Assembly (NCBI GenBank): GCA_965178125.1
Contig: OZ237751.1
Location: forward strand, 744,001-808,000
DNA from: Bilabrum cf. latius
Lineage: Eukaryota
Length of the DNA: 64,000 bases
Direction: 5' to 3'
Numbering within the stretch: the first letter of the stretch is position 1; the number at the start of each line of letters is the position of its first letter. This document shows positions 1 to 37,071 of this stretch, piece after piece. The position numbers were made by a program, and so were the translations under genes. The notes under the pieces are model-generated. The model saw only the letters and a program-made list of their open reading frames with translations, was not told the origin of the DNA and did not search any database.

Positions 1-2902
1 CGCCAGACGCAGGATGCGAGTCGTACATGAGCACCTGCACGCCAACGCCCTCCGCCTGGGACGCGAAGGTGCGCTGGGCCTCTGCCAGCACGCCGGGCAC
101 GAGCGGGTTGGGTCTCTTGGTGATCTTGAGCCTGCCGGTCTCGATGTGCTGTAGGTCTAGCACATCGTTGAGGGTGGTCTGCATGGCCTCGGCGGCAGCA
201 TCGAGCGAGGGCAGGGTCTCGTCGAAGATCTCCACGGCCTCTCTCAACAGCTGAGTAGGTCCATCAGCAAGACCCAGGACAAACGCCGCGCCCATTTTGT
301 CATCCGTAACATCGCCAACAACTTGAACGTTGTCCGACCCTCGGCGTCGAGAACCGCGTCGTCGAATTGGATCTGTGGTGGATTGACGTCCAACTTGTCT
401 AGCGGCTATCTCTTTTTGCTGCAGTGCTGCTTCCAGTGCAAGCCTCACCGTCTTGGCTCCCTCCTGGCAGAAGTCTAGCCCTAGCACTACTGAGTTCAGA
501 GGCACCCTGCACTCGTGCGACAGGAACCGAACCCTCGACTGCAACGCAGCCCTCTGTTTCTCCGAGATGTCCATGGCGCGCTCCAGGTCATGCGATTGCC
601 TTGCGTACACATACACGCATCCAAGCAGCAGAGTTCTGAGAGCAAACATTATGAAACGAAGTGTAATGTCGACCGCAACGCTGGTGCGAGTGTACTCGGC
701 AGCCTTCACTCGAAGAAGTTGATCCACCGGTGCAGCCATCGTTGCTTCGGTGCAAGATTCTGACAGGGAGTCAACACCGGCAATCCTGGCCTGTGCGCAA
801 GCGCACAGCTCTGTCATGCGGAAGAGCGTCGCAGACATGATGGGAGTGAACAGCAGCTGCTCTGCCAGAATGAGCACGCATAAAGTCTTCAGCACCGAGC
901 CCAGCTGCGCAGATCTGTCCATACCGGCCTGTACGAGCGGGGATACTGACATTCGAATACCCTTTTGCACCCCGTCTTGCTTGCGCATCGACAGCAAATG
1001 CCTGGCCTCCATAGTTCCTGAACCCTCGCCACAGCAAGCGAGGGATCGCCGAGCAGTCACACATATCTCATGAAAGCTCTGGATGCCTTTCCATTCGAAA
1101 CGGCTCAGCGCAGCCCTCGATTCCGACAGAGTACTTTGAGTTGGAGGTGAAGGCATAGAAATGCGGACAGCTGGCCGACACCACTTCGGTAACCTGCCAC
1201 AGCAGCAGCACAAGCACCATCGCGCCAGGCGGGCCTCAACATCAAGAAGCTGACAAGGCCTATCGGCTCGCTTGTCGTTGTACCAGCGGTATACCTCCAT
1301 AGAAGCGTCCTGCGTCGCTTCATCCATGCCTCGGCTAGGTGTTGCCAACAGGACCAGGACACATACGACAGACACGGGGAACATGACGAACACACACACG
1401 CAGAATAGAGCCCAAAGAATCGTGAAAGCGCTCACGATGCTGAGGTCAAGAGCGCTAGGCACACTTTGGGATGCGATAGTGGCGTTAATGCCGCATAGCG
1501 TTAACTAGCCGTCATTATGAACCCCAATAGGCAACGCATTCGCTCGATTCTGGGGTGACATGGGACGCAGGACTTCAAGGAGGCTAAATACTAGCTGCGT
1601 CTCATCCAGCGAGGCAGTGCGCCCGCACAGGTGATTCTGATCCGCAAGAGCGACGCGATTCCAGAGAGGATTCAGATCAATAGACTGGCCATCGCCACCG
1701 TCGCCGCTACTATCACCACTGCCTCCGGAGCCGTCGCCTTGGACCATGCAGGCAGCACCGCCGTATCCAGAAGACATGGTCCACAGCTTGTTTGCGTGAT
1801 CAAACCACTGATCTACCTGGTACGCCGACCCATTGAAGTCGGCATTCTGTTCTTGCATATCGTCAATAGCACCAGTGAGCTCTGCCTGTCGTAGCAGCGA
1901 CAGGAACAGCACCGGCCTCCCGTTGCTGCCTCTGATGTCTGTGAGCATAGAGGCGGGTTTACCGGAGTACGTCGCGTTATCCAGACCATCAAACATAGAC
2001 TCCAGCTCCAAGAGTCCAGCGAGGCCCCCCTCCGCCACTGTATAGGACGCAGCGAACCTCGACAAGCCCACCGTCGCCGCTGCACCAAGATAGGCAAGGG
2101 ATGCGATGATGGCGGTTGCGGTGATGCACACAGTCCGACGAGCCTTCAGCTTGAACTCTACCGCTGGACGGGTAGCAGTTGTAGAACCTATAATCATCGA
2201 AATTACGATGGCGACGATGAAGGTCACCGTGGTGGTCCACGGCTAACCGAGCGTGGACTGCTTCAGCAGGTTGATAGACCGAATATCACCGACAGTGGCG
2301 GATTTTCCCGACAGTACCGCTGCTGTAATGGACAAAGAACCGATCAGGTACTGTAGAGGAGACCCCAAGCCGGTCACGATTGGCCCCGCGCCGAGAACAC
2401 CACCGCCAACAGACGTTGGCACATAAAAGAAGTACGACTCGGCCACGAACGCTGTGCATAGTAGCCACATCAAGACTGTCATGAGTGCATGTCGATCCCA
2501 CGTCGAGCAATCGATTGCTACAGACCTTGTCGTTCGATTCTATATCTCAATCAAGAGCAAGGCAGAGCTGCCGCACAACGCGAGTATCGTCATTGCTACG
2601 ACTAGTACCGACGTCGTTCCGATTGCTGTCTGGGCAGTACCAACAGCTTCTAAGTCGATTGAAGCCGATTCAAGCGTTTCTGTATCCCTTGGTACAGCAT
2701 CGGGCATATCAAAGTCGATGCTATAGCCGACGTCATAGCGCCATGTCGTCGAAACGCCAAACAGCGAAGCAATCGAGTCGATCAAGAAGACTGCCCCGAT
2801 CGTGAACGAAATTGCCCCTATAACTATACACCCGGCATAGCTAAATGTTGCCTAGCGCACCATTGTATCAAGCATATCAGCTCTCTCAACACTGGATTGC
2901 AT
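1..2902 (-). CDS. Membrane-bound histidine kinase, paralog A (3' end runs off the window)
   Basis: One frame from gccATG at 2902 (MQSSVERADML) to the window edge, interrupted only by 4 TAGs (2852, 2540, 2243, 1505). It has several TM segments and the H-box RVRFLSHECRVPLNSV (His codon 515-517), followed by TLNDVLDLQHIETG. Colinear with paralog B at 4601-9355. Confidence 0.9.
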
Positions 2903-3008
2903 GGCGGAACTTGATGGGCGACTCCCGCGAAACGATTGGCCTTTGCTTAACAAGCGCCGGCACGTCTCAGTGAATATTCGAAAGACTTAAATTTGGATGG
3001 AGTTCTTG

Positions 3009-3148: not shown

Positions 3149-4190
3149 AATCGTCATTGCATTTCTGGTCCATCTGACACTCATCGAGGCGTCCTTTGGT
3201 TTGATGACCTGCACCGACCTGTCACCGGATGTGAATCTGGCTCAAGGTGACGATGACTTGATGAGGGAGGCAGGAAGTGCTGGCTACGGGCTGCACCTGA
3301 CCCCCAGCGTGCCAGACGACTGCCCCGCAGGAACAGCAAGCAGGCAACTATTGTCGGGCATTGATGTGTGCTGCTACATCCAGAAGGCATTGAATATCAT
3401 GTTTGGGGTGGGGATACCTGCCGTGGTGCTGCTGGCAGTGGGAATCCCTCTCGTGTCAGGGATCGGGCTGTGGTGCGTACGATACCGATTGGGGGAACTA
3501 GAAGTGCTAGCAACTCTAGGCTTTCTGATGAACGGATTCAGGCCAGAGACGAACTACTGGGAAGTGGTTATTATGGCACGAAAACTGGCCGTGGTGGCCA
3601 TCACGGTGCTTGTGGAGCCGTGGGGGGTGAGGGTGCAGACGTATTCGGCTCTGGCTGTCATCTTCGCCGCCGGGGTTCTGCGCGCCTTGCACTTCCCCTT
3701 TTCGAACCGTGAGCTAAATGCGCTGGAGCTGACTGCGCTGTGTTGCGCCTTTGTGACGTTTGAGGGAGGCTTGTTCCTCAAAGACCCGAACTCGGGCACG
3801 ACAACTGTGGTTGCGGCTACTGTAATGGTATTCTTCTCGAATTTTGCCGTGTTCTGCTCCGGCTTGTTCGTGATTCGGTCGCAGCTGTGGTCCTGTGCCA
3901 TGAGGTTCTGCCACGCATGCCAGCCGCGAGGGCGCCGCTGGCAGCAACGGCAGGCAGGTAGCCTCAATCCACAGGGACTGGGCAGGCGGCCAGACCCGGA
4001 ACAGTTCTCCTCCCAGCCAGACATTACGACACGCAACCCGTTGAATGCAGCAATTATGGTGCATTAGATGTCGAGTAGTAGCGGCGAAGTCGACGGTGTG
4101 GTTGGCAGGGGTGCTCGAGCTGCTGGGATGAGCGCCAGCGGCAGTAACGCGGACGGCGGGAGGGGCTGGTGCGGGGGCACAGTTCACTGA
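3141..4190 (+). pseudogene. 5'-truncated multi-TM protein (C-terminal membrane domain of protist large surface/TRP-like proteins)
   Basis: Motifs FLVHLTLIEASFGLMTC, GFLMNGFRPETNYWEVVIMARKLAVV and FPFSNRELNALEL. The homologous-looking sequence begins right after an in-frame TAA (3138-3140), upstream of the first ATG (3204), with no N-terminal domain. Reads through TAG 4065 to TGA 4188-4190. Could be a short functional gene instead. Confidence 0.55.
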
Positions 4191-4600
4191 ACGATGCTGA
4201 TGCGGCGGTCGGATACTTTCTGGTTGGAATGGCTAGCGGTCCGGGATGGCCCATTGCGCTAGGGGGGGGTGGCATGCTTTTCGGATGGATGAGGAATCCA
4301 TTGAGGATGCCGACGAGTTTCTTGAAGTCAGACGATTGTTTAGGCAGTGGCATAGCCGTGGTGTATTTGCTCAAAGCGCAACATTTGGTGTCGTCAGCTG
4401 CAGCAATTCAGGAGGCGATAATTTGTCGCAGTCTCGGCGTGTCCCAAAGTGTGAAAAATGAAGATATTTACAACGGAAAGGTGACACAGATTTCAATTGC
4501 TGTCCAACCTGAAGACGTAGAACTGGCCTTGTCAGTTTGATACGAAGCCGTTTGTTTTTCTATCCTTAGTTCTGCGTGGTGATTGCACTTGCGCAAGAAA

Positions 4601-7600
4601 ATGATTCAATCCAGTCGAGCAGCGGAATTGAACCGGATGGTCCGAAGAGCAACTTGCAGTGTTGCAGGCTTTCTGCTCTTGTTCATCGTAATTGTCATGT
4701 TTATAGTAACAATTTTAGTTGAGGTTGTGGCAGATGGCTTTCCTGAGGCGACAACATGGCACCAAAGCAAGGCATACTCAGCAGAATTTACAATTCCAAG
4801 CTTGCTGCCCCTTGATGGCTCCAAGTATCCGCATCCGGACGGATTCGTCGGTGGTGTTCAAGCCGGCTAGTCTGCTGTCGCAACTGCGGGATGGCTTGTG
4901 ATCTGCTGGGGCATAGCGGGGTTCGTCGGCAGCTCCGTTCTACTGTGCAACGAAATCTGGAAAAGGCGAACCTTTGCCTCGGACTGCAATGAATGCACCA
5001 GCGAGACAGTGTGGGACAGACATGGCTTAATGACTGTATTGTTGTGGCTGGTTTGCGTAAGTCTCTTGTGCGAGAGCTACTACTGGTACATGCCCCAAAC
5101 TTCTGCTGGAGGAGTCCTCGGCAATGGGGCAGTGATCGCATATTAGCCGTCTGCACAGAGCCAGTACGATCTCTTTGGATCCATTATGTCGGCTTGGGCA
5201 AGAGGGGCCGCTGCTACGGTGGGGGAGATCGCAGTGGCGGACGTGTCTCAGATCGGCACCGTGGTGCAGCTCTGGGCAATGGCGTCAACGATCGCGCTTG
5301 CTCTAGTGGTATCAATGATTATCGGCGCAACAACTGCCGCACGCCCTACTGTGGAGTTTGCACTGAAGCGCAGCAGAGCCATCTGGATCATTGTCGCAGC
5401 GTCGCTGACCGGGTGCATTTACGTGGGGACTGCTGTTGCCCTCGGCACCACCAGGCTGGGCTCATCATTAGCAGTCGCAGACACAGGCGTGCAGGCATTG
5501 GACTATGTTGAGTCACACCTAAGCCAATTGGGCAACGCGACTTACTCCGGTAAACCCGCCTCTATGCTCACAGACATCAGAGGCAGCAACGGGAGGCCGG
5601 TGCTGTTCCTGACGATGCTACGACAGGCAGAACTCACGGAGAGGGAATCCCTCAATGAATCCAGTGTATCATTATTGGGAGCTGCTCGAGCTATATCTTC
5701 CATCGCTGAGCTCGATGCTCGAGGTCACCCTGATCCTGACTTGCTTGTCGCCCCGCTATACAACAGGCAGGCTGCAGGCGACCACCTGCAGTGGTGCATG
5801 TCGTACGCCACACAAGCCGAAGCAGCCGCAGCCCTGTATGCTAAGCATGTCATTCAGAAAGCTGCTGATCGAGGCGTCAATGTTAGTCTTCCTATCGTCA
5901 TTCCTGGTCTCGCAACGACTGGCGCCCCTGATGCCCACACGTACGGCAGGCAAGCGATCCTTGAAATAGAGGCAAATGACAGCTCCGGGTCACAGGCAAT
6001 GTTCGCAATATTTACATTGTTAGGCCTTCCAAACACTATTATTCTACTTTATGTCCTCGTGTTTACTCCCAGTCGCGGCATGGATGAGGCGACCCAAGAT
6101 GCGGCAGCTGAGGTACAAGCATGGGCAGCTGATAGAAATGCACGGGCGGGTCGCAGGTGCCAACTGCTAGACGCAGAGCACGTTTTCGCCTAGTTCGCTA
6201 CATGGACTTGCTGCTGCGGCAAATTGCCACCCATGTGCGCTCCTGCAGTGTCAATTACTGGTCGCTGGCAAGCAGATCGCCACGAGACCGACTGCGGGCC
6301 GTGCAAACCGAATCTTGATGCAACGGCAGCCTTCCACGAGGTCGTCGTGACTTCTGCGCGTGCGGTTTGGTGCTGCGGCTCGGGTATTGCAGGTGCAGAG
6401 GCCCAACATTTCATGTCGCTTCGATCCGACAAGGCAGGCGGTCAACGAGCCTTCCGCTCCACTGTTTCGCCGCTCGTGAAAGCCGGCATGGACAGGGCTG
6501 CATAGCTTGGCTCAACCCTGAAGATCGTAGCTATGCTGATGACTATCGCAATATTTTTGATGAACGAGATCCAATCTAAAGCAACGTTTGATATTATTGA
6601 TGTCTGCACGTGCTCGTACGTCCAAATCGCGGGACTAGAATCCATGTGGGATATGTATCGCTGTCCTGACGCGCTTACTGAACCAGTAGAGCAGTCTATG
6701 GCGGAGCAGGCTAAGATGGGCTTGAACCGGCTCGTGACTGCGGACCTACTCATTCGGATTTTTAGCGTGGCATTGCGTGTTGTTTTTGTGAGCACGGTGT
6801 ATGTGTACGCCCGCCAATCCCGTGAGCTAGAGCGCGCCATGGACATCTCAGAGAGGCAGAGGGCCGCGCTGCAGTCGAGGGTTCGGTTCCTGTCGCACGA
6901 GTGCAGGGTGCCTCTGAACTCAGTAGTGCTAGGGCTGGACTTCTGCCAGGACGGAGCCAAGACGGTGCGTCGTGCTGCCAGCTTGCTTCGCAATAGAGTG
7001 CACAGGCCAGGTCGCCAGCAAATTTCACAAGATGCGATGCCAGGATCTCCGGAATCCGGTGAGCATGCTAGCATTGAAATGTGTACTGAAGTGTCTGGTC
7101 TGCTTCAAGAGGCCGTGGAGATCTTCGACGAGACCCTGCCCTCCCTCGATGCTGCCGCCGAGGCCATGTAGACCACTCTCAACGACGTGCTAGACCTACA
7201 GCACATCGAGACCGGCAGGCTCAAGATCACCAAGAGACCCAACCCGCTCGTGCCCGGCGTGCTGGCAGAGGCCCAGCGCACCTTCGCGTCCCAGGCGGAG
7301 GGCGTTGGCGTGCAGGTGCTCATGTACGACTCGCATCCTGCGTCTGGCGGCAGCTTCACGTGCGACCCTGTGCGGATCCGGGGGGCTCTGTACAACTACG
7401 CATCGAATGCGTTGAAGTGGTCTCGGCCGGACGAGAAGCTGGTGAAGCGTCTGAGCGACCTGCAGGTGCGGGGTCGTGGTGATTCAGCTCAGCGTCCGCG
7501 TATCGTGTTTGGGTCGAGCGAGGTGCCACCTCACCTGTGGGGTGTGTCTGAATGGCAGAAGGCAGTGGGCGGGCTGGGAGAGGACCTAGCAGGTAAGCTG

Positions 7601-9355
7601 CACTCGATAGTGGCATCTAGTAAACAGGGCATGCGTGCACGCATGACAGCCTACGGCTTTGATACCAGTGGAGAAGTAAGTTCAGATCAGTCAACAACCA
7701 AACGAGCTCGAAGAGGTCGTGGAGCGGAGCCCGATGACGGCATCAGTGCTCGATCCATGTCCTCCTCTGTTGCTCCTTTGGATGCCATGGGCTCATCGAT
7801 AGACTCGTGTGCATCGGGGGGCATTTCTGGCGTGTATTCGGACGGGTAGGCAGCTGCACACCAAGGCTCTGTGGATACTTAGCACCAGCCGCCGGGGATT
7901 CGATTCGGAAACATGCCCATGGTACCATCGATGTCGATAGAGGCTGACACTGAGTTGTTGCCTAGTTCAGAGCAGCTAATCGACCCCTAGGTCTAGTCGA
8001 CAGGCGATGGGCCCACCTTGCTTGCAAGCCAGGATGTATCGCATGAATCTGTGGCTCAAATAGCGCCCGACACCATCGATGTCTATGATGGTTTGCGCCA
8101 TGAGTGGCCGTGCCCCGTAGTACAACCGGAGCTAGGCATTCCAAGGCCTCAATCGAGATAGCAGTCAGTGGTTCGTGGAGATTCTAGAGTAGATCGTTCC
8201 GGTGGTGCAGGTCACATCGCGATGCTGCCCACGACGCTTAGTTCGACTTTGCGGCAAGACTCTGACAAGTTTGTGTCTTTGTGGGTGCTCGATGAGGGGC
8301 CCGGCATCCATCGCAAGGACTGGGGCAAGGTCTTCACCCCCTTCGAGACGCTGCACTCGGGGATCCTCACGGCGGAGGGGCAGGGGTCCGGGCTGGGGCT
8401 GGCCATCACGGCGACGGTGATCCGCATGCACGGGGGCTGCGTGGGCTTTTCGTCTCGTGCTGGAGTGGGCAGCGTGTTCTTTGTATGGCTGAGGATGGGT
8501 GTCCAGCCCCCTGGGCCGCATGATCCCGACTCACGAGGGAGTCCAAGAACACGGCAGCTGGACGAGCTGTCCAGTGCTGTAACAAGTGCTGATGGTGCGC
8601 GAGCGCGAGTATCCCAACCATTCAAGGAAGGTGGCACCTTAGGACAAATGCGGGCTTCTACAAGTGCCAGGCCGGCAGTGGAGCCGACCTAGAGCACAGC
8701 GGCAGACAGTGCCACCCAATCGTCGAACCAATCAACCTCAACAAAACGAAGACGGAGGGTCGTCAAGCGCAAAAAAATCTAGCTAGAAAAGAGAGGCTCT
8801 TAGGGGTATAGTGTTGGCACCTCCGAACCCCAACAAGTATCTCGAATGGCGACTGATGATGCTTCGTCTGGAAAGGCACTACCTAGTTCTGCAGTGGACC
8901 AGGGCACCGTCCTTGTGGTGGACGACAGCCGCACCAACCGGCTCTTCCTCTCCCGCATGGTGCGCACCGTGGATCGATCCATTCAGGTGCTCACGGCCAG
9001 CGACGGGCAGGAGGGGCTGGACCTGCTGAGGCAGAGGGCCAGGGAGCAGCAGGCCGAGGAGACTGGTGTTGAGGGTGCTGCTGGCGGTGGCAGTGCGGCT
9101 GCCTTGAAGCCCGTGGTGGATCTGGTGCTGCTGGACTTCTCGATGCCGCGCATGTCGGGGCCTGAGATGGCACAGGCTGTGCGAGGCGATGGGGACGAGA
9201 GGGTGCGTGGGGTGCGGATTGTGGGTGTGACTGGGAATGCTCTGCCGGAGGATCAGGCTTTGTTCCGATCGAGCGGGGCAGAGGAAATTCTTTGCAAGCC
9301 GGTGCGGAGGGCGCAGATCGAGAAGGTGATTGGGTCATTAGTAGCAAGGGTATAA
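4601..9355 (+). CDS. Hybrid sensor histidine kinase, paralog B (multi-TM sensor, HisKA, HATPase_c, receiver), ~1584 aa
   Basis: Eight tracked ORFs in one frame, joined through 13 TAGs, ending at TAA 9353-9355. H-box FLSHECRVPLN, N-box ALYNYASNALKW, G1 WVLDEGPGI, F-box VFTPF, G2 GSGLGLAI. Receiver motifs VVDDS, LVLLDFSMPRMSG, VTGNA, LCKP. Confidence 0.93.
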
Positions 9356-9532: not shown

Positions 9533-12500
9533 TCAATCTCGGTCAATGTATGAATCGTCACTATCGCTCTCCTCCGAGTCGCTGCCTAACTCGGACACGC
9601 CTGCATCTGCCTCTTCGGCGTCGCCATCAAAACCACCGATGGCGTCGTCTTGTGACTGCATGCGTGGGTGCTGCAACAACAGCACCTTCGCCTACTCCGC
9701 CGTGACCTCCTCTACCTCCTCATCATCGTCATCTGAGTCAATGCCGCTCCCCTGTCCCGCATCCTCTTCGTCGTCGGCTTCTAGCCGAGCCTTACCACTG
9801 GTTGCTTCACCCTCATCTTCATCTTGGCCGCTTCGCTCGTCCTCATCCTCCATCGCATGCTGGCCTGAGGCATCCTGGAGCTGCCTGCTCTAGAGCCCAC
9901 TGGATCTAGATCGCCTTGGGAAGGCCACTGCACTCATCAGTGCGACCGATGCTGGACCGAGCCCTAGCAGATAGTTGGCGTCCTGAGCCACACGGGCTTC
10001 GTCGCTGGTAGGCTCGTGCAGGTCGGGCACCTCAGTGTCGCCCTGTGGCTCCGACCTGGCCATGCAGCAGTACAATCGTCGGGACGCCGACTAAAACGCG
10101 GACTGTAGCTCTTCCTCTCCAGAAATCCCGCCCAGATTCTACTGGAGCCATTCAGGCATGGCCGCGAGAAGCAAAATAGCAGGTCGCGAGACGACCAATC
10201 CTTCAGCAAGTGGTCTCCAGCTTCGTTTGCACTCGCTGATAGAATCGTCGACACTGCATTCGCTGTACTGGCTTGACAGCCACATGCAATGGCCGCCAAG
10301 AATGGCCTCCCTGGCGAGAGCGAATTCTGTGCGGGGCTAGCATCCTGTTGGTGTGTCGCACGCTATCAAGCCCCCGCAGTGCAGGATAAGAAGTAGTCCG
10401 TGTACATCCGTTGGCGACAGCCAGGGGAACAAGTTGCGCAGCTCAGATTCCGGCGCAGACGGATAGGCTCTGACAGCGCGGTACATCCCGTGCAGCAGAC
10501 CAGCGAGGAGCCGCACATTCCACCTTGACCCTCCGCGAGGGTCCGTCCAGACGCGAGCAGGCCGCAGCCCGTCTGCTAGTACGCGTGCCCTGCATGCCAC
10601 CCTGGCAGGGTTTGGGATGTACACAGTAGGACTTGAAAAGTCCTTCGTCGTTGATCGCGCTACCACGTCCAGCTCTCGAAACGCCAAACTACCAGTCTAT
10701 GCCATACCTGCTAGATTGGCCACACTGCGGCGATCCACGGCTTGACTGACAAGCTCGATGCCATACTGTACAATACCACCGGATGACCTGCCCATTGCCT
10801 CCTCTCTATCCGCATGGCTCTGGGCAGAGTCAGTCCTCTCCAATTTGGCTGTCTCATCAAGTTCGCTCTTGTCTGACACTGCGACGGTCCTGCTCCCGTG
10901 GAAAGAGGCGTGGGAGGCCTCGACCAGCAGTGGCCCATGCATGCCGCAGACAACTTGCGCTTGACCCCGCAGCACCAGCACTGCCCAAGCCTGCTTGCAC
11001 GGCTTAAAGTACCGAAGCAGGTCGATTGCGTCAGAGCTGCTGCTCACTGCGGACGCGGCGGACGCACCTCGTTGCAGTGATTCCCTGACAAGTTCCATGG
11101 CACGTCGCAGCGCCAGGCCTTCCAAGCCGCGAGACGCGCACGCGCTCATCACAGCAGAAACGACAGCATCCATACTGCTGCTGTCCAAGCCTTCCAAGGA
11201 AAGCTCGCCAGCGTCCGATGGTGACGTTCGAGGCTTCTTCTGGGCAGATGCCATTGCGCTGGCCGTGGGACCACATCTAATCTCGGATCCGCTTCTTCCA
11301 CGCTTGCTGCCCAGAGCGGGGCTGCGTGCTCCGTCCGAAGTTATCGAAGCATGATCTGTGCCGCCGGTCGATTGCCTTCTTTCTCGAGCTATGGCAAGCT
11401 GCCGTACAACATAGTCTGGCCTCTGCATTGCGACATACTGTGCTTTGCTGCCCTGAGCGGTACTGTGCAGAATGACCCTGAGATCGTGCGCTGCTGCCGC
11501 CCGCGTGCGAATCAGTCGATCTGCCAGCCTCGTGTTGCTGTCAATCAGGAAGGAAACATGACCATTCACAGGCGGGAGTATCTCCAGTGTCTCAAAGCCA
11601 CTCGAAAGCAGTCGGTTGAACACGGCAGAAGTTGCCAGGTCGATAGAGACCGAATCGTTCGCGACGAGATCAACGTAAGGTACTCGGTTGCCAACTGCGC
11701 TTCTGCCGCCGGCTGCATCGCGGATGACAGACATGTGTACCGATGCCCGACTCGGCGGACTAGATGCACCCAAAGCCGCTCCCGATGAGCGGGTTGAACC
11801 TGACTGCTACGGGGCCACTTGCCTTTGGAGGTGCCTCAGCACGGAGGAAGTCACCGCCCTGGCTGCAACCAAGGACAAACGCTTGCTCTGCGGGGAAGTG
11901 GCGTCACGGATGAGCCTGGCTAGCATCGCAATATCTGCGGCGCGGTCGTTCAAGCCCGGCTTGACCTGCATAGGATGACCCGCCAGAGCCAGTGCAACCT
12001 GGGCGGCAATCTCGCAGTGGACAGATGGAAGTACATCGTGCAGCCAATCAGTCTTGTGGACCGAAGACGATAATACAGTCGTGTATCCCAGCATGCCTGC
12101 GGTTCCTGGGGGCGACTCTGCAGGCCAGGACGGCACTATGGCTGCGGCGAGCTCACTCGAAGCGGCAGGTGCAATCCCGCTGGTGATCGCATCGATCTGG
12201 GCTGCGTTGCCTCGGCTTGCAAGTGGCACCAATCGAGCCAACCTATGCGATGCGCTGGCAGTTCGGCGGCTGTCAAGTCTGAAGGCCAACTCGTGCGAGG
12301 TCCTCACGTCTGCCGGCACTGCTACGGCGGAGCCTGCTCCTCGCGCAGGAGCAGCCGGCATGTTGGCACTCCTTGGTGGACTCGAAGGCAAGAAGGCTCC
12401 AATGCCACCGATCGTGCCTAGAGCCGAGTCCTCGCTGCCCTGCCCAGCTGCAGAGGCCGATGCGGCGTCTGCATCAGCCCGTCCCACTTGTGGCTAGGTT

Positions 12501-15500
12501 TCCACGAATGCGACAAGCGCTGGCTTTGGGACAGATTGTGCATCAAACCTGGCCAGCATCTTCGCTTGGGATCGGAACGACGCCAGAACCGAGGCTTCCG
12601 CTCCGAGGCCGTGGTCTGTCTCAAGCCTCCGCACTGCGGACTCTACGCCCCCCCCTGCAGCTTCGCCCAAGGCAGACCAGTCCGCGTCTAACCGCGCCGA
12701 CTCGCCGGCAACGTGACGCATTGCAACCAGCGCGTGGGGGGCTCTTACGGTCAACTCAAACTTGCTAGACGGCTGCAGCAAGATCATGAGTGGAACCAGG
12801 TCTGCACCGGCGATCTCGCGCACCTTAGGGGCCGCCTAGATGGCTCCGCGCGGACCAAGCGACACAGCGGCATGCACGTAGGAGGCTGGCCACACCTGCA
12901 AGAAGGTGGATCCTTCTTGTTCCTGGTTGAGGCCAAGTCGGTTGGAGGCGTTGGAATTGCCACGGTCGCCGAACGCACGCGTTCGCACGTCGGCGATGCC
13001 GCTGGCAATCAGACGTGCGAACCCATGCCTGATCCCGGCAAGTGGCAGCGCGGTCTTGCATCCGAGCTTAAAGGCCGTGGCATCGCTGGAGACCAGCCCT
13101 GCCTCCTAAATGATCGCGTCGTCTTCATCCATGATGGCAGCGGATAGCGTCGCTGCTTCCTCCATCGAGCGGAAGGCAGCAGGTAGCAAGGTAGCAGGAG
13201 GGACTGATGCGGAGGATGCGCCTGCACCTGACGCCGCCAGGCCAAAGCCATCACTTCCAATCTGCGGAGGCCTGACGTACTCGAGAACTGTACGAGCTGC
13301 ATCGGGGGAAGGGGGCAGACAACTGCTGAAAAAGAGGCGAAGCGCAGTCCGGAAACCTGCCGCGTGCGTCTCAAGCGCAACTAACCCACCTTCTGCCGAT
13401 TTCAGCGCGTCATGGGGCCGATGGAGCACAGGGCCAAAAGGAGAATGGACGCATGGCAGTCTCATTGTGCGTAGCAGGCCTGCTGCCGGGCCACAGCCGT
13501 AGTCCCAGGGGCGATCCGCTGCTGCGTGCCCAAAGACGCCAGCCGTACCACCATCTGCTACGGGGCCGCTGTGATGCTCCATGTTCTCGAGAGTAGACTT
13601 GAGCCTTGCAGCGGTTGGATGTTGGCTCGCTCTCATGTCCTAGCTATCTGCTGTGTTGGAACGCGACTTAGTGTAGGAAGCAGGAGCTGACGATGCGACT
13701 GCAGACTACACCAGATCACCGTCGACAGAGTCGCTGTCGTCCATGTTGCCTGCAGCCACCGCAAGCGCGTCTGGGACGGCGTGCCACGGAGCATCCGGAT
13801 CCTGAATCATCCGAATCCCATGGCTGCCAACCCTGCGGTGTCCCACGTCGACCTGCATGTCGAGAGAGACAGAGCTATGGCTCGCCCTATATCTCCCAGA
13901 GGGTTTCGGGAGCGACGGCACTGGCCGATGCTGGAGAGATAGTCGGTCCAGCTCCAGCCCATCCCACGCGGTCTAGAAGCCCTAAATTTCAACCTCTTCC
14001 TCCGGTATGACAGCCGTCTGCGAGTGCTGCAGGACGCGCGGTGCCCCGTAGCTGTGGAAGAGCTGCGTATCCACGAACCCGCCTTGCTCGATTCCGTGCC
14101 AACCGTCGGCCTGTTGCAGTAGGAGCCCGGCCCCAGCAAACGACGTAGCAGCGTCCTGCTGAGAGGAAGCGCTGCCCTACCTGTCTGAATCGGGTGCGCG
14201 TGTTTCCGAACCAAATAGACCAGCCGACTGCATGGAACGTATCGCAGGTGCTGATGACGATGATGCGGCTGTTGCAGCCGCCGCGGCACCGGCAGCCCTG
14301 GCCGCGGCATTTATTGTCCAGGTAGACGATACCTTCTTGGGCTAGCCCGGCATACTGACCAGGCTGCGTCGGCGAGCATTAGAACCCTTTCCAAAGCTGA
14401 TTGGCAAGAGTGACAGAGCCGCTTTGCCGTCCCTGGCCTTTCTTCCGAGCGAGAGCATGTAGCCCTCGGAGGCAGGGATAATGGACATGGCGTGGGCCAG
14501 ATCGAGCAAGGCTCGCTTGTGTGTGCTAGCAAGCCTGATGGTCGAAGCCAACGCTGTTGTTCGAGATTGCAGCGGAGCGATAGAGCTAGCAAACAGCTCA
14601 GTACCAATGCTGCAGCGCGTCTTCTGGTCTGCATGTCTCGTGTACTTCCTGACATCGTCGCGAAGTTCGCGAATCGTGTTGTGCGGCCTGAGTTGCTGCT
14701 CCAGCTCCCTAAATCCCTCCCTGGTCCACCCACAGAGCTGCGAGAATGCGACCATCAGGTTGAGGGGCAGCGCAATGCAGATCTTGGTGCTGCCGATCTA
14801 GTCTTCGTGCACACGCGTGTCCGCGTGTCTGAGGGCTGGGGTGGACGACGAGGCACTCGATGTTTGACGACGACTGCCAAAGTTGAGAGTGGCACCGACT
14901 CCCTGCATGACTGATGGGTGCGTGCAGGTGAATGCCCCAATGGCAGCACGAGAAGTAACCGCCTTCGCGAATGATCGTGCTGAGTGATGCCTAGTGAAGG
15001 CCCTAAAGATAGCCCCGTGCTGCTGGCGTGACCATTTCATGAACGAGCTCTCACCGGCGGCGGCATCCGATCCATCCCAATTCAGCAGTTTGCTGACATT
15101 CGACGATGCTGTGGCTGCAGGATTGTCCCCGGTGGCATCAGCAAGGACACAAGCAGCCACGGCGGCCGACATGGTGGCAGCCGAATGCATGCTGCAGCGC
15201 ATGAGCTCCCTGTGCAAGCGAGCGTCCACGCCGGTCACTCTGCCCCTCTTCTTTGTGCGGGCCCCGTGCTTATTTGAGGGAGACTGCACAAGCATTCCGG
15301 GCAGCTTGGAGTAGGCAACTAGCTGCTTGGCCAGAGTAGCCACCTGATACGCAGTTGAGGCCTCCTGAATTCGGCTGGACCATGTCTGCTCCTACGCCCG
15401 CCTCACTGCCCACGTCCGCAGCCCCTGACTCAGGATCGTGTCGTTTCCCCTCGCTGGCAGCCCAAACAGGAAATCGTACATTTCAAACGTCGGGTACCCG

Positions 15501-18500
15501 AAGAGCTCCTGCGCAGACATGCCTTCAACCGCGGGGCGGAGCAGCGCCACCCTGTCCTCTGTGCGCATGCAGTGGTGCGACTTGATCCACAGGTGGACAG
15601 CAAACTGGCCCACCGCCACGTCCTTGCCCTGGTACTCCCCGTGCAGCACGGAGCGCACATCTCCGTTAAATCGCGCGAGCTCTAGCGTCTCCTTAGTGTT
15701 CTTTTTGACGCCTGTCTCGACGGGGATGCCCATTTGTTCCTCAAGCTCGCTCCCCAGCCGGCGCGCCTCTTCGCTCCTGAGACAAGCCTGCACGTTCAGC
15801 TTCAACCAGGAACTCTAGCCACCGCCTCCAAACTTGGTCGCTGCTTCACGCGGGTTGCTTCCCAGGAGCGTCTGCGATAGACCACTGGCTGCCTCATGCT
15901 TCGAAATCTATGACAAGGTGCGGCCGGGCAGGGCAACCTCACGCCACTGCTGCAGGCTTCCAACGCAGCTTGGGGAGGCAAGTCGGACTGGTTGATTAAA
16001 GGCTGATGAGCTATCCACCCAGACGCTGTCCAGAGATAGAACACTGCGAGCTCGGGTACATTCACGCATGAAGTAGCTTGTCATTCGCTTGCCATGCGCC
16101 GCGAGACTGAAGAGGCCACCTGCAAAATCGACAGATGGCACCCGGATGCCGCCCAGCCGCATGCCCCGACGCGATTCCACTTCCGCACCGTACAGCACGG
16201 TGGGACTTTCAATCTCACGCATGCTGAGGGGTGGTACCAGGGTGCTGTGCGGGTGCATCGGGCTGCCACGCGCCTGCCTCTGGGCGTCGAACCTAGAGTG
16301 CGAGGTCGCGCATATATGCTCCTGGGCCTCATCCTGGTGCATGGACGCGTGGAGAGCCTCCCAGTAGGAGTCGGCGTCCTGGCCCGAGAGATGCACCCAC
16401 CTAGGGCTCGCTAAAACCAGCTGCAGCAAGCCCTGTCGGAGCACCCGCAGCTTCCTGCTCTCACAAGCAACCGAGACGCCACCGCTGCTCTCAGCACGGG
16501 CAATGCCGGCGGGTCGGAGTAGAGAGTCGCCCGGCTGGCTCATAGACTCCTCGAGCTGGCTTGCCTGCATGCTGTCGTTAAAGTGAGAGGACCCTGCATC
16601 GCTTGCTGGCATCCGATCGCGAGCGTCACGAGCCGCCCCCAGCTCCGGGTGAGATTCCTCGTACGACACGATCTTCTCGCCGAGTGCTGTGATCAGCTTG
16701 CCCATGCCAAACAGCCTCACATTATCCACGAAACGGTTGCCGTAACGTGCCCTAGCGCGTTTCTGCTTCCTATCGGAGCTCCCAGCCTGTTGGGATGGTG
16801 AGTCAGCATCGCCTGCCCCAGAGGCAGCTGGGAGCAGTGTGGATCGCTTTGGGACAGCAAGGGCTGCGGCTCTTGCAGCTGCCGCAGCAGCTGATTTGCG
16901 GGCAACGGGTGCGCTGTTTTGCTTCGCCTGCTACTTCTAAACCTTTGCCTTGGAACGAACGCGTCGCTCTCTAGCAAAGCGACCCTTGTATTGCGCCTTG
17001 AGACCAGATAGTGTTGTCTGGAAGGTTGGTGTCGACGGGACGGGGATCCCAGCAGCGATGCAAAGCATGACGGCGTGACGAATCTTGCCTAGGTCCTTGA
17101 TCTGCCTGCTCTCGTCTGCGTACATCGTCAGCAAAGTAGGAGACTTAAGCCCCACTTCAACTTTCGCCAGCGAGGCACCGGATGCGATTGTAGCTGCACG
17201 CTGCGCCGGCAGGGGCATGGGAACAGGACCAGAGACCAGCTGCTCGAATCCTAGCTAGTCGAACATTTGCAAAGTGGGTGTAGAGCACAGGGAGACCCAG
17301 TAAGCATGCATGGATGAATGGTTGTTCACCATGCCGGGAGGCACGCTGCTTGCCGATACGACCCTTGCTGTCTCATGGGCAGACCGGAGGGCTCGCTCGG
17401 CCGCAACAGCACCGGATCCCAAGTCGTTCTCAGCCGCAGCCAAGCTTGAGGACGACGCAGAGGATGGTCCCTTGCGTGATCTACCAGAAATACTCTCCGG
17501 GGGAATCTAGAAGGATGCAACTAGGCCCCGATACAGGTAGGCCTCGAGCGCGGTACCTGGGGACTGCACCACAAGCCGCTACTCTCTTAAGAGCTCCATT
17601 GCAGCTTTGCGGGCACCCCTGGTATGCTGCGCCCAGCGCCTGCATGTCATTTCGTGCAAATGCGACACTCTAAAGGTTGCGCTGCCATCGCGCGCAGCTG
17701 CCCGCACGGTCGGTGGGAGGGACGACAGAGTGGCTGAGAGCGGGCCGCTGGGCACCTCGGATACGCCAGCCTGCTTGCACGCATCGACGACTGCAGCAGC
17801 CAGCAGGAAATCCGCAAGCCTGTTGGAGACCTGCTGCATCAGATCGTCCCTGTCGGGGAGCCCGAATGACTGCAGGGCTTCTCCAATCTCTAGCCTTGCG
17901 AAGGCGTCCGTGTCCTCTACCCAGCGATCCACCAGACTAGAGCCTGGAGCACCCTGGCCCGCCAGTAGGCCCACCCAGTTATTCGAATTGACGGACGGTG
18001 ATTTGCTGCATGCGGCTTCAACAAAAGCTCGGTGCAGCGATCGTGCGGCCAATACCACGCCGCATTGGTAGGCATGGAACGGTTCGTCCGCCCTTGGATC
18101 GGTTCGCCCAACAGACGCGAACGGAGACACGGATGCTTTGGCTGCGTACAAGGCCCACTACCGAACGACACCAAGCGCCTGATCTTGCCTTTGGCCCGAC
18201 CGCAAAGCGAGAGCGAGGGTATCTATCGCTGCCACTCTATCCTTGATCTTGGATTGGTCCACAACGCCTGAAGGGTGATCCGGGAATGGGTGCCTGGCCA
18301 GCATGTTGGCCAGGTAGGCGTCGAGCTCTGCCTGGTCAAAGTCAGTGCTCAGCCAGGGCCTGTCAGATTCCACGGCTGCCGCAGTAGTCTTCCGCGAGGA
18401 CTTTGCAGTCCCTGTTGCTGCCTTGGTTCGCCTCTGCTTCGACTGCGAGCTTATCGCTGCAGAAGCGGCAACCAATTCTGCAACTGTTTCACTCACCTTG

Positions 18501-21500
18501 CTCCTCTTCGAAGCGCTGTCACCAAACGATGATCGCCTGGATCTCATCCCAACCGACAAGCGGCGCGAAGCAGCCGGTAGGATGAAATCGTACTTGGGTT
18601 GGTTCGGCAGCCGAGCAACTTGCGTCCAGCGATCCCCCACGTCCAGAAGTACACGCTGCAGCGACCTATGGTTGGATGCTACCGTACTGCCCTGACCGCC
18701 AGGTTCCACCCGGCTGCTCAGCAACCCCGCATCGCCCAGCAGCTGGAACGTCGGGACGACAAAGCCACGCGCGCGGTTCTCCACGATCGACTTGGCAATG
18801 TGCTGCACCTGCACGACCTCAGACCCCGCCGCGAAGGACCCAGCAATGAACTTGTCCAGCTACGCCGGGTCTGCGATCTTCTTGAGGGACCAATAGAGGG
18901 CCAGAAGGTTTTCTTTCTGAGTGATCCCGCTCCGCTCCGGCACGCAGCAGGCCAGCAAGACCTCAGGGTCGCGGTCGGCGGCGTCGAGCAGCTCCGAATC
19001 GGCCGCATCGCGGAACGGCTTGCCCAGCACGTCCTGTGCCCCACGAACTCGGCGTGCGATCCACCCCCGGAACCACCTGCGCGCGTTGCTCCCCGCCTTC
19101 GTCTCAAGGCTCATAGTGAAGCTTGGTTTGCCCGTGGTGTCGAGGTACTGCTGCAAGACGACTGCTTTGACGGCCTCCAGCCCAGGCCCCTGCACAGCGC
19201 TCGCAATCCGCTGGTTGGAGTCGAAGGGAACCATCGTGTAGCTCGGGGAGGAGGTCTTATACAGCAGCATGCTGTGAACGAATACAATCACTGGAGCTTT
19301 CTTTGTATTTTTCTTGCCCTTGTTGATGTCAACGGCACATCGGAGGCGGATGCACTCGCTGCCGAATCGATGGTTGCCCTGGTTATGATTTTCGCACAGA
19401 GGCTCGATCAGCCTCCTTACGGTGCTCTTGTCAGGCTTGGTGCCGATACATCGCTTTAGCTGCTGGGCAGCATCCGCTTGCTCCGTCGTGAAGGGACGCC
19501 TGCCGTCTTGTTCGCCAGGGGCATTCTGCGCGATGATATGAAGCGACCTCCACAGGGTGACGTCCAGCCTGTGCTCTGCCATGACTCCCACCATGCAAAG
19601 CACCATCCGGGCTGCCAGCTGGATGGCTTGCTCTCGAGTACGCACGTGTCGGCTGAGGTTTCCAGTGATTGGGATGGACGCAGCGGGGCCAACCTCGCAG
19701 CCGACCACTCCAGGTGCCATCATCAGCGATGCTGGGGCGACTCTCGTAGGCAGCATGAGGTGCATGGAGTTCACGCAGCTCACCCGAGCTGCTTCCGCGA
19801 GACCGAGCGGCCCCGTGGGTCTACCCAACGCAAGCTGGAGAAGCGTTGTGGCGTCACCTGCGGGGGCAGACACAGCCACCCGTGGGAATCGCCTCATGGT
19901 ACTCCAGTCCGACAGCGGGTGGCATAGCGCTGCCCGAACCGCTGGGCAGGATTGTCCTTCGCTCTGGTGAGGCATATTCGCAGTTACCTGAACCCCGAAA
20001 GGCCGTGGCAAAATGTAGGCCTGCGCAGGCCTCGCACCGTACTGCAGGGGCGCTGCATCCATGGCGACGCCAAGCTCCTCCAGCCCGCTGCTACTCTGCA
20101 GCTGCTTCACCAGCCGTGGGGCCAGGTAGGTGTCCAGTGAATTCACCGGCAGGCCGAAAGGCCCATGCATGCAGGCCAGCTGCACGATCTGTGCCGTGCT
20201 GTGCAGCTCCATGACTGCCTGGGGGCCCAGACCAAGAGTCCCCGAGCTCGCAATGGGTAGACCGTCGCTGTACACGCTTGGCAGCGGTGTCCTTCCCAGC
20301 CTGGTGGCAGCCAGCGCGCCTCGATTGGCAATCAGCTCGGTGCCCGGCAGTGCGGAATCTGCGGCAACTGGTGCACCAGACTCAGGTCGCGCGGCAGGTG
20401 TTGAACCACCAGAGGCACGGAGGCATTCACGGTCCCATAGCCAGCCCTCCACCTGTGATATAGTCCCAAGCATTGCTACCTGGTCGAGCAGTGACCCCGG
20501 CCCTTCGCCTGCAGTGTTTTTGCCGACCACATTGCGGTGCGTGAGCGAGCCTGCCGAGCCGCGGGTTGGTCGCACCTGGCTGCCTGGAATGCCCTGATCG
20601 TAGCCTGCAAGCAGTGCAGGGGACAGCGAGAGCTTTGCCAAAGAGGCGTAGTTGGGCCCAAGTTGCTCCCACCCCTGCAAGACGCAGAAGACCACGTCGT
20701 TGGCGAGGCTTTTGCTCTTGCTGGACTTGCTGCTCAGCGGTAACGATGAAGAAGAGCCCGACGGAGACTCGGGAAAAGACACATTCTTGGAATACGCAAT
20801 CTACCAGTGGTCCTGGCCCCGCACCGTAAGGCACTGCACCCACGGGTTCTCCATTGCCTGCACCGGCATCTCGTCGAGCAGCTGTCGGACCAGCACGCGA
20901 TCGCCGCACACCCCATCGAGAAGCATGTACCCGGCAGACTCTGGCACAGCAAGCACGTCGTGCACCACTTGGGTGACGGGGTGCGAGCTTTCGAATTCGG
21001 CGGGGCTGGCAGTGGTGCTCGCGACGAGCTCTCTGTCCACCACGATCCCCTTGGCATGCATGCTGCCCGCCTCCTCGCGAAGGCTCCTGTTCCTCGACCC
21101 CCTGTGCTTCTCGAGAAACCTCTACTCCACGTCGTGTAAGCTCGAATTCATCGCATGGACGTCCTTTGAGACGCTGAGAAGACCAGCAGCTGTAACAAAC
21201 AGAGAGCCCCGGCCCTCCATCCGAGAGCATGCACCAGGCCGCAGATGATCCAGCCAGTGCTGGTCGAGGACGGCTGCGGGGGCAGTGCTCCACCTGTCCA
21301 AGTCGGTCGCCGCCGCTGAAGTGTCGGTGGAAGCGCCGCTAGGTGCCGAGCGGGATCCGGAGAACTGGGGCGCGAGCCCGAGCATCCCTGCAGCCCCCGT
21401 GTGAGAAGGGCCATCGCTAGGGGCGTTCGACGCTCCGATAGATAGCACGTCGACCGCCCTGCCGTCAGCCGCGGCACCCCCCGTTGCGGAACCAATGCGG

Positions 21501-23190
21501 CTCTTGGCTCGAATGGCTCGGGGATACAAACGCGCCCGCCTGAGCATCACAAGCCCGAAGTGCCCGGCAACATGAGCCCGGCCAGCCTGTGACATGTGTG
21601 TGGAGCTGAAGCTGCCCTTTCCATCATGTCTGGCAACCTCCAGCCTTTCTGCTTGATTGCGGATGAGCGCACTCGCCCTGAACATGATCCGCTCATCGCC
21701 ATCAGCGGCACTGATCTCCCCTGGGGGGCTCGGCCGGAGCCGAGTGGTTCCCATGCATTCAGCAGACCGCACCAGGCCGCATGCCGGCCACAACCAAGGG
21801 GCTTCGGAGCCCGACCTGCGGGAGAAGCCGTCAGCTATCCTCATAATTGGCAGCATTTGGCCCCGCGCGTACCGAAGCAGGGTAGTGGATCGCGACTTGT
21901 TTCCGCTCGTAGAGTTGACCGTCAGCTGCTTCACGTTGTCCACGATCTGCGTGGCAACTTTCGCCTACATCTTTTGCTGGGCCTTGCTACGCGCCTGCTA
22001 CCTCTTCTTCTCGCTCTCTGGAGTGCTGCTGGTGGGCCTGCCTCGAAGCACGGTGAACACGGTGCTGGAGGACTCGACGGGGGCGCCGCGCCGTGCCGCG
22101 GCCGCATTGCCAGAGGGCGCACCACCCGCGAGATCCCTTGCGATGGAACCCGCAGCATCCGTGTACTTGTATCCGGACATGGTACAGCTCCGGATTGTGG
22201 CAGCCGCGCGCTGCTGCGCGTGCGTGGCGCCTACGACGCGAAGGATGCGGGTTCCCAGCACGTCTGCGAACTTGGTGTGGATCTCTGACGTGATACCCTG
22301 TCGGCCGTTTGCCAGGAGCATGCAAAGTAGGTAGTAGAGGAAGGAGGGCTCGTGAGACTGCTCGGTCTTCGGTCCGGTGCTTGCTAGAGGGGTAGAGGCG
22401 CCTGCGAGCACGACGGGGTCTAGAAGAAGCTGATCGGCTTGGGTCTACGCCGAAGCGGAGTCCATTCCTGCCGACGCGCCTGCCGAAATTGAGTTGAGAT
22501 CAAGGTACCCAGCCATGCCTGCGTTTTTGCTCCCGCTTGGTGATTCTTTATTGGAGTTGGGCGGCCCCGATGCTCGCTGCAACTGCGATGTTCGTACAGC
22601 CGCACCCCAGAACGATCGGCAATGGCCATGAAGGACATCTCTAGTCTCCAATATCATGTTAGATGCAGTGCTTCCGACAGACTGGATCGCCGCATCCTCG
22701 GTTGGGAAGAACCAAATGCAGAGCTTCGGTATTCGCCGACTTCGAATCGATCTGACGTTGCCAGACAGAACTGCAAGCAATGGAGCACCCGGAAGCGCTG
22801 GCATGCACTTAAACAATTTCGAAGTACGGGAAAGGCTAGAACGCTATTTAGCTCCCAGCACTCGGGCGTGGTCCTGCGTGGCGGAACTGGAAAACTTCAA
22901 ACTGCAACAGCACGTACCGGCTACTCGCACCAGGGAGCAAGCACCGGTCTACGTCACGGACTCACGCTAGACTCGTTGGCTAAACCAACTTTTACTGTAA
23001 CTGACGGGTTCGTAAGCAATCTCTTCAACAGAATGGCTGCAGCTACGGATACCTGCTTCGAGCTCGCAGTCAACACCTTGCCAGAGTACGCCTCCAGCTG
23101 CTCAACAAGAAGTTGAACCAATGAATACCAGTCATAACCCTCGTATGCACCATTTAAGGAAGAAATACAGGATTGGACAATCCTATTCAT
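9533..23190 (-). CDS. RNA polymerase III transcription factor TFIIIC subunit 1-like (GTF3C1/Tfc3), ~4,520 aa
   Basis: About 20 tracked ORFs in one frame (9533-22873) joined through ~33 TAGs, ending at TGA 9533-9535. Predicted exon 1 is 22966-23190, with intron ~22874-22965 (GTGAGT...ACGCAG; acceptor uncertain). The C-terminal WTDPRGGSRWNVRLLAGLLHGMYRAVRAYPSAPESELRNLFPWLSPTDVHGLLLILHCGGLI resembles the GTF3C1 C-terminal winged helix. Also YYLLCMLLANGRQGI (B-block-binding-like) and PDKSTVRRLIEPL. Confidence 0.75.
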
Positions 23191-33764: not shown

Positions 33765-34421
33765 TCCCGTCAGATCAATATGTGCAGGGCTCAAAACTAC
33801 TGTTACGGTGCACCGGCGAGTACACCCACTGCCAATTAAATGGCTTTGTACTCCTAGAGTGACTCTAACTTTGCAGTGCTAGGATGCGAATCGCTCTGAG
33901 TGATAAAGCCAGCACCATGGTCCGATCTGATTTTCTGCCAGCATGGCTATTGTCGCACAACAATGCCAGTGGTCGCACTGCGACCGTCGCAGTAGACGTC
34001 TAGATATCTATCTAGCGCTTGTGTTGCCAGCGAGTATCGCAGCAAGAAGTATCATGTATTGGATGGTGGTGCATATGGGCTGCTCGATGTCTGAGTGAGA
34101 CCAACCATTAATTAGCTTCTGCAGTACAGGCCGACTGCCTCCCAGGCAACCCTGCATTGCCAGCATGGCAGCCAGTAGCCCACACAATCCCTCCTAGCAC
34201 CGGTGCGAGTCTGTAATGCAGTACGCCGCAATTCTGAAGCTTAAGCAGCGTAGCCCTCGAACAATTGGAGAGCTGAGCCCAGCCTGAGGGGCTGTCGATC
34301 TCGACGCCGGAGCGCAAGGCTTGGTCATTCCTTGTTGATCGGCTGGTTGGTGGCTCATTCCAGGGAGATCAATAGGTCATTTCCAGAATACCAGAATACC
34401 AGAATAATTTGTGGATTTCGG

Positions 34422-36992: not shown

Positions 36993-37071
36993 GATTTCGG
37001 TGCGATATGTTTGTAGCGTGTGCTTACAACTTTACTCTGGTATATACCGACAACGGAAAGAAGCAACAAAA

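Follow-up and report, generated by a model that had tools for sequence, protein, structure and literature searches.

Reassignments of UAG alone in nuclear genomes have been described for Iotanema, Protocruzia, two phyllopharyngean ciliates, Scotinosphaera and one rhizarian (PMC11687900, PMC5304391). In the fornicate Iotanema spirale, UAG codes for glutamine (Gln) and UAA and UGA serve as stop codons, a code of the NCBI table 15 type (Panek et al. 2017, PMC5304391), and UAG is also a Gln codon in the ciliates Hartmannula sinica, Trochilia petrani and Protocruzia tuzeti (McGowan et al. 2024, PMC11687900). It is read as serine (Ser) in the green alga Scotinosphaera and as leucine (Leu) in the rhizarian exLh (PMC11687900, PMC5304391), and both UAR codons are read as Gln (table 6) in many ciliates, ulvophycean green algae, hexamitid diplomonads, Streblomastix and Amoeboaphelidium (PMC11687900). 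TAG as Gln with TAA and TGA as stop codons is further known from code-15 phages and metagenome-assembled genomes of giant viruses (PMC9523058, PMC13524828). For the UAG=Gln lineages, a tRNA-Gln(CUA) that arose from tRNA-Gln(CUG) and an altered eRF1 have been proposed as the mechanism (PMC5304391, PMC11687900); the N-domain of eRF1 contacts stop codons with its GTS, NIKS and YxCxxxF motifs (PMC5304391). Here, we analysed a stretch of 64,000 nucleotides (nt) from contig OZ237751.1 (positions 744,001 to 808,000 of the forward strand; referred to as the window), whose genes, among them two histidine-kinase paralogs at its left end, carry numerous in-frame TAG codons. We find that TAG very probably acts there as a plain sense codon for Gln, as judged from comparisons of the encoded sequences.

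TAG codons in the window and in its kinase paralogs

The codon usage was determined on a curated set of 16 genes with 17,578 codons, from which two doubtful open reading frames (ORFs) had been taken out and to which two later-found genes had been added. These genes contain 125 in-frame TAG codons and not a single internal TAA or TGA, and 15 of them carry TAG, including those coding for a GH59 glycosidase, a Sir2-family protein, a PARP, a PEBP-family protein and a hybrid kinase. TAG is not depleted in frame (125 occurrences vs. 164 and 129 in the other two frames), while TGA is absent in frame despite 279 and 377 off-frame occurrences. TAG accounts for 13.9% of the sum of TAG, CAG and CAA, and the 15 complete genes terminate with TGA (12 genes) or TAA (3 genes). 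Under table 11, the longest ORF of the window comprises 640 amino acids (aa), whereas reading through TAG yields ORFs of 4474, 1928, 1734, 1590 and 1192 codons, which lie on both strands and only a few hundred bases apart; reading TAA as an additional sense codon (table 6) makes the ORFs barely longer. As far as translation can be deduced from DNA alone, all parts of the window use TAG as a sense codon. We propose that the code has lost TAG as a stop codon and would use it as a third Gln codon, leaving only TAA and TGA for termination as in table 15. By analogy to other UAG-to-Gln lineages, this would involve a tRNA-Gln with a CUA anticodon, descended from tRNA-Gln(CUG), and an eRF1 blind to UAG. 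No tRNA genes were found in the window or in the nine related metagenomic loci described below, and the window contains no eRF1 gene and gave no Rfam matches.

The two kinase genes are divergently placed and code for membrane-bound hybrid histidine kinases with 42–47% aa identity. Paralog A (2–2953, minus strand) runs off the window start and is represented by its N-terminal 984 codons; it contains four in-frame TAG codons, is open only if TAG is read as sense, and gave a weak HisKA match with Pfam. Paralog B (4583–9355, plus strand) comprises 1590 codons with 13 in-frame TAG and ends with TAA. An initial sequence-only reading had reported a match of 7109–7349 (plus) to 241–1 (minus) with only four mismatches, and had taken a TAG/CAG pair within it as evidence for Gln. 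A repeat search returned this block with arms at 1–242 in A (minus strand) and 7108–7349 in B (plus strand, second helix of the phospho-acceptor domain), which are 98% complementary over 242 nt; the match meets the left window edge, which hides its full extent. The codon-by-codon comparison gave exactly four differences across 80 codons, which are in frame in both copies, namely TCC/TCG at 7142 (Ser), TAG/CAG at 7169, ACT/ACC at 7175 (Thr) and GAC/GAT at 7184 (Asp). The TAG codon in question is residue 863 of B (7169–7171, plus strand) and stands opposite a CAG (Gln) codon of A (179–181, minus strand), with 20 of the 21 neighbouring alignment columns being identical. Its placement inside the HisKA domain holds only weakly: residue 863 is within a Pfam match at 840–878, but the score of 19.6 bits (E 9e-4) is below the curated cut-off of 26.9 bits. 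Downstream of nine of the 13 TAG codons of B, that at 7169 among them, Pfam recognised HATPase_c (E 6e-11) and Response_reg (E 3e-12) domains. Because the HATPase_c and receiver domains are intact past TAG 7169, copy B does not represent a truncated pseudogene.

High nucleotide identity between the two paralogs is found in three tracts, 1–242/7108–7349 (98%), 438–616/6797–6975 (91%) and 1875–1983/5529–5637 (94%), which together contain 14 synonymous and 8 non-synonymous differences in addition to the single TAG/CAG difference. Because this near-identity includes synonymous sites and occurs in otherwise diverged proteins, it argues for gene conversion instead of constraint at the protein level, and the mosaic of A and B points to conversion between the inverted paralogs. 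The TAG/CAG difference would then represent a synonymous C-to-T transition within a recently homogenised block. The stretch of DNA is contained in seven sequencing runs, none of them registered as RNA. In a comparison with assembled contigs from four of these runs, in which X6 and X7 gave patchy coverage, a variant contig present in runs X5 and X6 showed C at position 7169, and its seven other differences within 7110–7460 are all synonymous. This C probably goes back to the same single CAG-to-TAG event, and the variant contig therefore adds no independent support. The contig depth over 6671–9338 amounts to 2–4 times that of the flanks, suggesting that further copies of the C-terminal half of the kinase are present elsewhere in the genome.

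Aligning the two kinase proteins with MAFFT resulted in 896 aligned columns, 418 of them identical, and contained all three further TAG/CAG pairs named in the sequence-only reading, albeit with different reliability. The TAG of B at 6503–6505 (plus strand) stands opposite CAG 907–905 of A in a well-aligned region (13 of 21 neighbouring columns identical), but the pairs formed by TAG 4868–4870 of B (plus strand) with CAG 2632–2630 of A and by TAG 2243–2245 of A (minus strand) with CAG 5267–5269 of B lie in diverged contexts (5 and 3 of 21 columns identical, respectively) and depend on the alignment. The TAG codons said to face arginine (Arg) or tryptophan (Trp) were also recovered, with Arg in three cases (2854, 1507 and 6191) and Trp in one (2542), yet a Leu opposite TAG 5144 had gone unmentioned; two further TAG codons of copy B have no partner in this alignment. 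Gln is thus found opposite four of nine aligned TAG codons, which places Gln about 7 nats ahead of Arg as the next residue if the substitution frequencies are derived from the kinase alignment itself. Since the near-identical block represents one TAG/CAG event beside three synonymous changes, it is thin evidence if taken alone.

The residue read at TAG

The assignment to Gln is upheld on a wider basis, which consists of metagenomic orthologs, columns of the GH59 family in which Gln is conserved, and protein fragments from a closer relative. The GH59 glycosidase gene of the window (48115–51693, plus strand) codes for a protein with an additional ricin-type lectin domain and contains 1192 codons with seven in-frame TAG and a TAA stop codon (Pfam GH59, E 2e-59). 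Scans with the single protein revealed no close relative in the metagenome_contigs and viral_contigs collections, and scans with a GH59 alignment found nothing in viral_contigs and genome_contigs; the alignment-based scan of the metagenome contigs, however, yielded nine loci (L001–L009). Locus L001 (4918 nt, 57% GC) contains a sister ortholog of the window gene with 61% aa identity and a branch support of 100, whose ORF of 1128 codons carries 14 in-frame TAG and ends with TGA. Two of its TAG codons share alignment columns with TAG 535 and 849 of the window GH59. The gene upstream of it is an ortholog of the PEBP-family gene of the window (47102–48217, minus strand; three in-frame TAG; Pfam PBP, E 2.4e-7), which is 47% identical to the L001 ORF, and the two loci are therefore syntenic. 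A third GH59 sequence with two in-frame TAG codons, one of them at a near-invariant Gln of the family, was found in locus L007 (261–1301, plus strand). It groups with the TAG-free homolog P0009 on a long branch and not with the window and L001 sequences, and may represent either an independent recoding or a long-branch artefact. According to these predicted genes, the trait of in-frame TAG codons extends to at least one related organism. Further relatives were detected with an orphan gene of 1734 codons and 16 in-frame TAG (28469–33673, minus strand): a HMMER search with its residues 1–1200 gave 12 matches, five of which are short fragments of 75–89% identity, as a standard-code gene caller would make them of a TAG-bearing relative.

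The pairwise comparisons of kinases A and B, of the GH59 and PEBP proteins of the window with those of L001, and of the 1734-codon orphan gene with 11 fragments from relatives were pooled, which gave 36 TAG codons with an aligned residue. These are Gln in 12 cases, followed by Arg (5), Leu and Ser (3 each), threonine, valine and lysine (2 each) and seven singletons, in line with the expectation that TAG stands preferentially opposite CAG or CAA. Gln partners occur in the orphan gene at TAG 310, 441 and 150, those at 310 and 441 being derived from the fragments of the closer relative (86–88% identity). In the same alignments, Gln is found opposite 47% of the true Gln codons and opposite only 0.8–7.2% of the codons for Arg, Ser, Glu, Lys, Leu and Trp. 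Using substitution frequencies drawn from the pooled alignments themselves, we obtained log-odds for TAG of +14.5 nats for Gln, compared to −6.6 for Arg, −7.2 for Lys and −22.8 for Ser; Leu was not among the five best-fitting residues. Gln also stayed the top partner if the local identity was required to reach 0.4 (7 of 19) or 0.6 (4 of 8).

The conserved columns of the GH59 family were used with a threshold of at least 70% conservation among the TAG-free homologs, which is reached by 314 columns, nine of them for Gln. Five TAG codons fall on such columns, with consensus residues of Gln in two cases and Arg, Thr and Gly in one case each. In the calibration covering the window, L001 and L007 sequences, 11 of 24 true Gln codons on conserved columns hit a Gln consensus, compared to none of 246 codons for Arg, Ser, Glu, Lys, Gly and Thr. 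The first of the two Gln columns is occupied by TAG codon 108 of the window gene (48436–48438, plus strand). At this site, L001 uses CAA, and Gln is found in seven of the eight TAG-free homologs that are not gapped there. We take this residue to be the Gln of the ricin-type Q-x-W motif. The second is occupied by TAG codon 171 of L007, with Gln in 13 of 14 homologs and in the window and L001 sequences.

TAG 710 of the PARP gene stands opposite Thr, Glu, Lys, Arg, Gln, Glu, Met and Lys in eight homologs, and Gln is enriched only 1.4-fold around TAG, which is too weak to be used. A 105-nt tandem repeat lies within the 1734-codon gene and contains TAG at matching positions of two units, which makes it uninformative on the residue.

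Several observations weigh against a plain sense codon for Gln, some concerning the residue and others concerning termination. At a local identity of at least 0.4, the Gln partner is found at 37% of the TAG positions vs. 67% of the true Gln positions, and Arg occurs opposite 5 of 36 TAG codons, more often than the about 6% expected for a Gln codon. The Arg sites are those of the kinases (2854, 1507 and 6191), codon 257 of the L001 GH59 gene and codon 188 of the L001 PEBP gene, to which codon 169 of the window Sir2 gene may be added, where TAG aligns to Arg in two solved sirtuins. The GH59 case affects a column with Arg in the window and in all 11 TAG-free homologs that have a residue there, and TAG 1055 of the window GH59 stands opposite a mostly Gly column. 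A BLOSUM score over the 21 GH59 TAG columns taken alone did not separate Gln (0.45) from Ser (0.39), with Gln preferred in 53% and Ser in 42% of the bootstraps.

Even so, it is very improbable that TAG is a sense codon for another residue, such as Arg, Ser, Lys, Glu or Leu, even if Arg is the second commonest partner and UAG is known to code for Ser or Leu in other eukaryotes (PMC11687900, PMC5304391). The residue opposite true Arg codons is Arg in 64% and Gln in 4.8% of the cases, but opposite TAG the proportions are 14% for Arg and 33% for Gln, and the log-odds values disfavour Arg as well as Lys and Ser. The Arg cases may rather represent Arg-to-Gln replacements, as two transitions lead from CGG via CAG to TAG. 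The closeness of Ser in the BLOSUM score is countered by the controls, in which true Ser codons reach a Ser score of 1.26 and the Gln score of TAG equals those of CAG (0.48) and CAA (0.50); this column score was superseded by the pairwise likelihood and the calibration on conserved columns. In the latter, TAG hits the Gln consensus in two of five cases, a hit which none of the codons for Arg, Ser, Glu, Lys, Gly or Thr achieved.

Similarly improbable is a context-dependent double meaning, with TAG read as Gln inside genes and as stop at some gene ends, as in codes of the Condylostoma or Blastocrithidia type. As the ORFs were defined with TAG read as sense, the lack of TAG terminators is partly built in: a TAG that does terminate would escape notice if a TGA or TAA happened to follow it. 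In three genes, the last TAG precedes the assigned stop codon by only 4 (62280–63737), 10 (26056–27795) or 18 codons (39735–45521), and the ORF of a transmembrane protein (3201–4190) could stop at its only TAG, 40 codons earlier than assigned. Occasional termination at TAG may therefore occur. However, no TAG terminator was seen or needed among the curated genes, drawn as they were through TAG, and the codon does not strongly pile up towards the 3' ends. Its counts by gene decile are 17, 9, 10, 10, 12, 13, 19, 12, 11 and 17, an even distribution like that of CAG and CAA, as determined on 15 ORFs of an earlier set that still included the two later-doubted ones. The GH59 protein continues past TAG 1173, 19 codons before its stop codon, with a conserved C-terminus whose motif is shared with the homologs, and the genes for Rad51, GH59, kinase B and the L001 GH59 all end with TGA or TAA. 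A double meaning was also judged unlikely for Iotanema and the recoded phyllopharyngean ciliates (PMC5304391, PMC11687900).

Finally, an extremely improbable case is that TAG is not translated as such and reflects U-to-C RNA editing to CAG, pseudogenes or assembly errors: the C at 7169 of the X5 and X6 variant contig would fit editing or an error, but this contig differs at 12 further places and therefore represents another copy or strain instead of an edited transcript, the DNA contigs of run X2 (~42–110x) reproduce the window with T at 7169, decay or errors would hardly produce 125 TAG without any TAA or TGA in 17,578 codons, TAG could still serve as a stop codon under editing although TAG terminators are not seen, and identical TAG positions are kept in an ortholog at 61% identity. 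Nuclear U-to-C editing at such a scale is not known to occur.

Nature of the genome and neighbouring genes

The window has a GC content of about 58% and contains a Rad51 gene with three exons on the plus strand (45706–45765, 45861–45959 and 46145–47008), separated by two GT..AG introns whose boundaries were read from the sequence. The ORF 46130–47008 matches the Pfam family Rad51 with an E value of 1.4e-129, and exon 2 matches residues 21–51 of human RAD51 (E 3.6e-9); exon 1 and the 95-nt intron are predicted from the sequence. The introns are placed in the 5' part of the gene, measure 95 and 185 nt, and have GTGAGA and GTGAGG as donors and CAG as acceptors. Because the gene is spliced, it belongs to a cellular eukaryote, and as judged from its predicted gene content, the window represents nuclear DNA from a microbial eukaryote with few introns and a high GC content. 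The Pfam families recognised are HisKA, HATPase_c, receiver, RING, GH59, ricin lectin, Sir2, PARP, PBP and Rad51, with no capsid or viral polymerase family among the matches. A cluster look-up of the last Rad51 exon returned generic Rad51/RadA clusters only. This exon differs from every other gene of the window by having no TAG in its 287 codons, at a GC content of 0.82 in third codon positions, and may reflect TAG avoidance in a conserved or highly expressed gene. An ORF on the opposite strand (45919–47562, minus) was rejected as an antisense shadow of Rad51.

The largest gene (9533–22957, minus strand) consists of 4474 codons and contains 34 TAG codons in frame, with neither TAA nor TGA preceding its terminal TGA. 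Its product is an orphan without any Pfam domain, and no homolog of 2460–7830 aa was found among 5.8 billion clustered proteins; it contains low-complexity stretches rich in Ala, Ser and Gly and an acidic C-terminal tail. The GH59 gene, whose relatives are environmental or transcriptome sequences, is followed by the Sir2-family gene (51972–53573, minus strand, two in-frame TAG) and a PARP6/8-like gene (53712–56621, plus strand, five in-frame TAG). The best named relatives of the latter are 31–35% identical and come from different supergroups (Nolandella, Chattonella, a heterolobosean and Reticulomyxa). The PEBP-family gene is preceded by another in-frame TAG two codons upstream of its start Met, both in the window (48218–48220, minus strand) and at the matching place of L001, which could indicate a conserved N-terminal extension, a feature of the 5' untranslated region or a coincidence. 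By eye, the protein encoded at 59674–61713 (minus strand) presumably resembles the splicing factor U2AF65, its start being similar to RRM1 and its end to a UHM domain, which makes it a candidate splicing factor, but no Pfam RRM match was obtained even at an E value of 0.5, so that it is either very divergent or misread. The overlapping ORFs 23362–25842 (plus) and 23606–25024 (minus) were dropped, having an uncertain coding strand, an atypical GC content by codon position and no Pfam match. A segment of 3.5 kb (33674–37174) contains no convincing ORF, and its GC content falls to 46%, compared to 55–63% in the gene-dense remainder.

Comparison with known reassignments

A code of the table 15 type is already known, and the window adds another case unless its source organism has already been described. 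A full-text literature search retrieved no description of UAG=Gln in a GC-rich genome from outside the ciliates; its scope did not extend to subscription journals or bioRxiv supplements, and such a genome may still have been published. We regard it as a realistic, though somewhat less than even, prospect that an undescribed non-ciliate lineage, with environmental relatives at 61% and ~87% protein identity, has independently turned UAG into a Gln codon. If true, this lineage would be among the very few free-standing UAG-only reassignments in eukaryotes and would be available as a contiguous genome instead of a transcriptome. Giant-virus genomes with TAG read as Gln imply a host of a kind not yet known, for which this lineage would, in that case, likewise be a candidate. 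Reassigning UAG while keeping UAA as a stop codon breaks the usual coupling of both codons, and a GC-rich, gene-dense and intron-poor genome would be convenient for asking how eRF1 drops UAG and keeps UAA, and how tRNA-Gln(CUA) becomes chargeable. On the practical side, standard-code annotation fragments nearly every gene of this organism and its metagenomic relatives; protein collections already contain such fragments, and genes of 4474 codons look like dozens of short ORFs.

Among the known systems, the lineages with table 6 share the change from stop to Gln, presumably by a mutated tRNA-Gln, but differ in having lost UAA as well, whereas TAA is not reassigned in the window (no internal TAA, three genes ending with TAA). 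Scotinosphaera and exLh have likewise uncoupled UAG from UAA in a non-ciliate eukaryote, but their residues, Ser and Leu, fit the window badly. The code-15 phages and giant viruses differ by being viral, whereas the window is of cellular origin with a Rad51 gene containing spliceosomal introns. The three UAG=Gln ciliates resemble the window in that UAG alone has changed to Gln and is spread along the genes like other Gln codons, and in that 78–84% of their genes carry UAG, compared to 15 of 16 in the window (PMC11687900). The window in turn has ~58% GC and at least 64 kb of contiguous long genes on both strands, on a contig of up to 212 kb. We therefore assume that its genome is not ciliate-like.

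A close match is I. spirale, which agrees with the predicted genes of the window in that only TAG is reassigned, Gln fits best and TAA and TGA are the sole terminators seen (PMC5304391). TAG is a minority codon in both, with ~8% of the Gln codons in Iotanema and 13.9% in the window, but the predominant terminator is UAA in Iotanema and TGA in the window (12 TGA, 3 TAA). Iotanema is known from a transcriptome, and nothing in this analysis links the window to Fornicata; the Rad51 of the window is conventional. As read from its predicted genes, the code of the window matches NCBI table 15 in every feature testable here.

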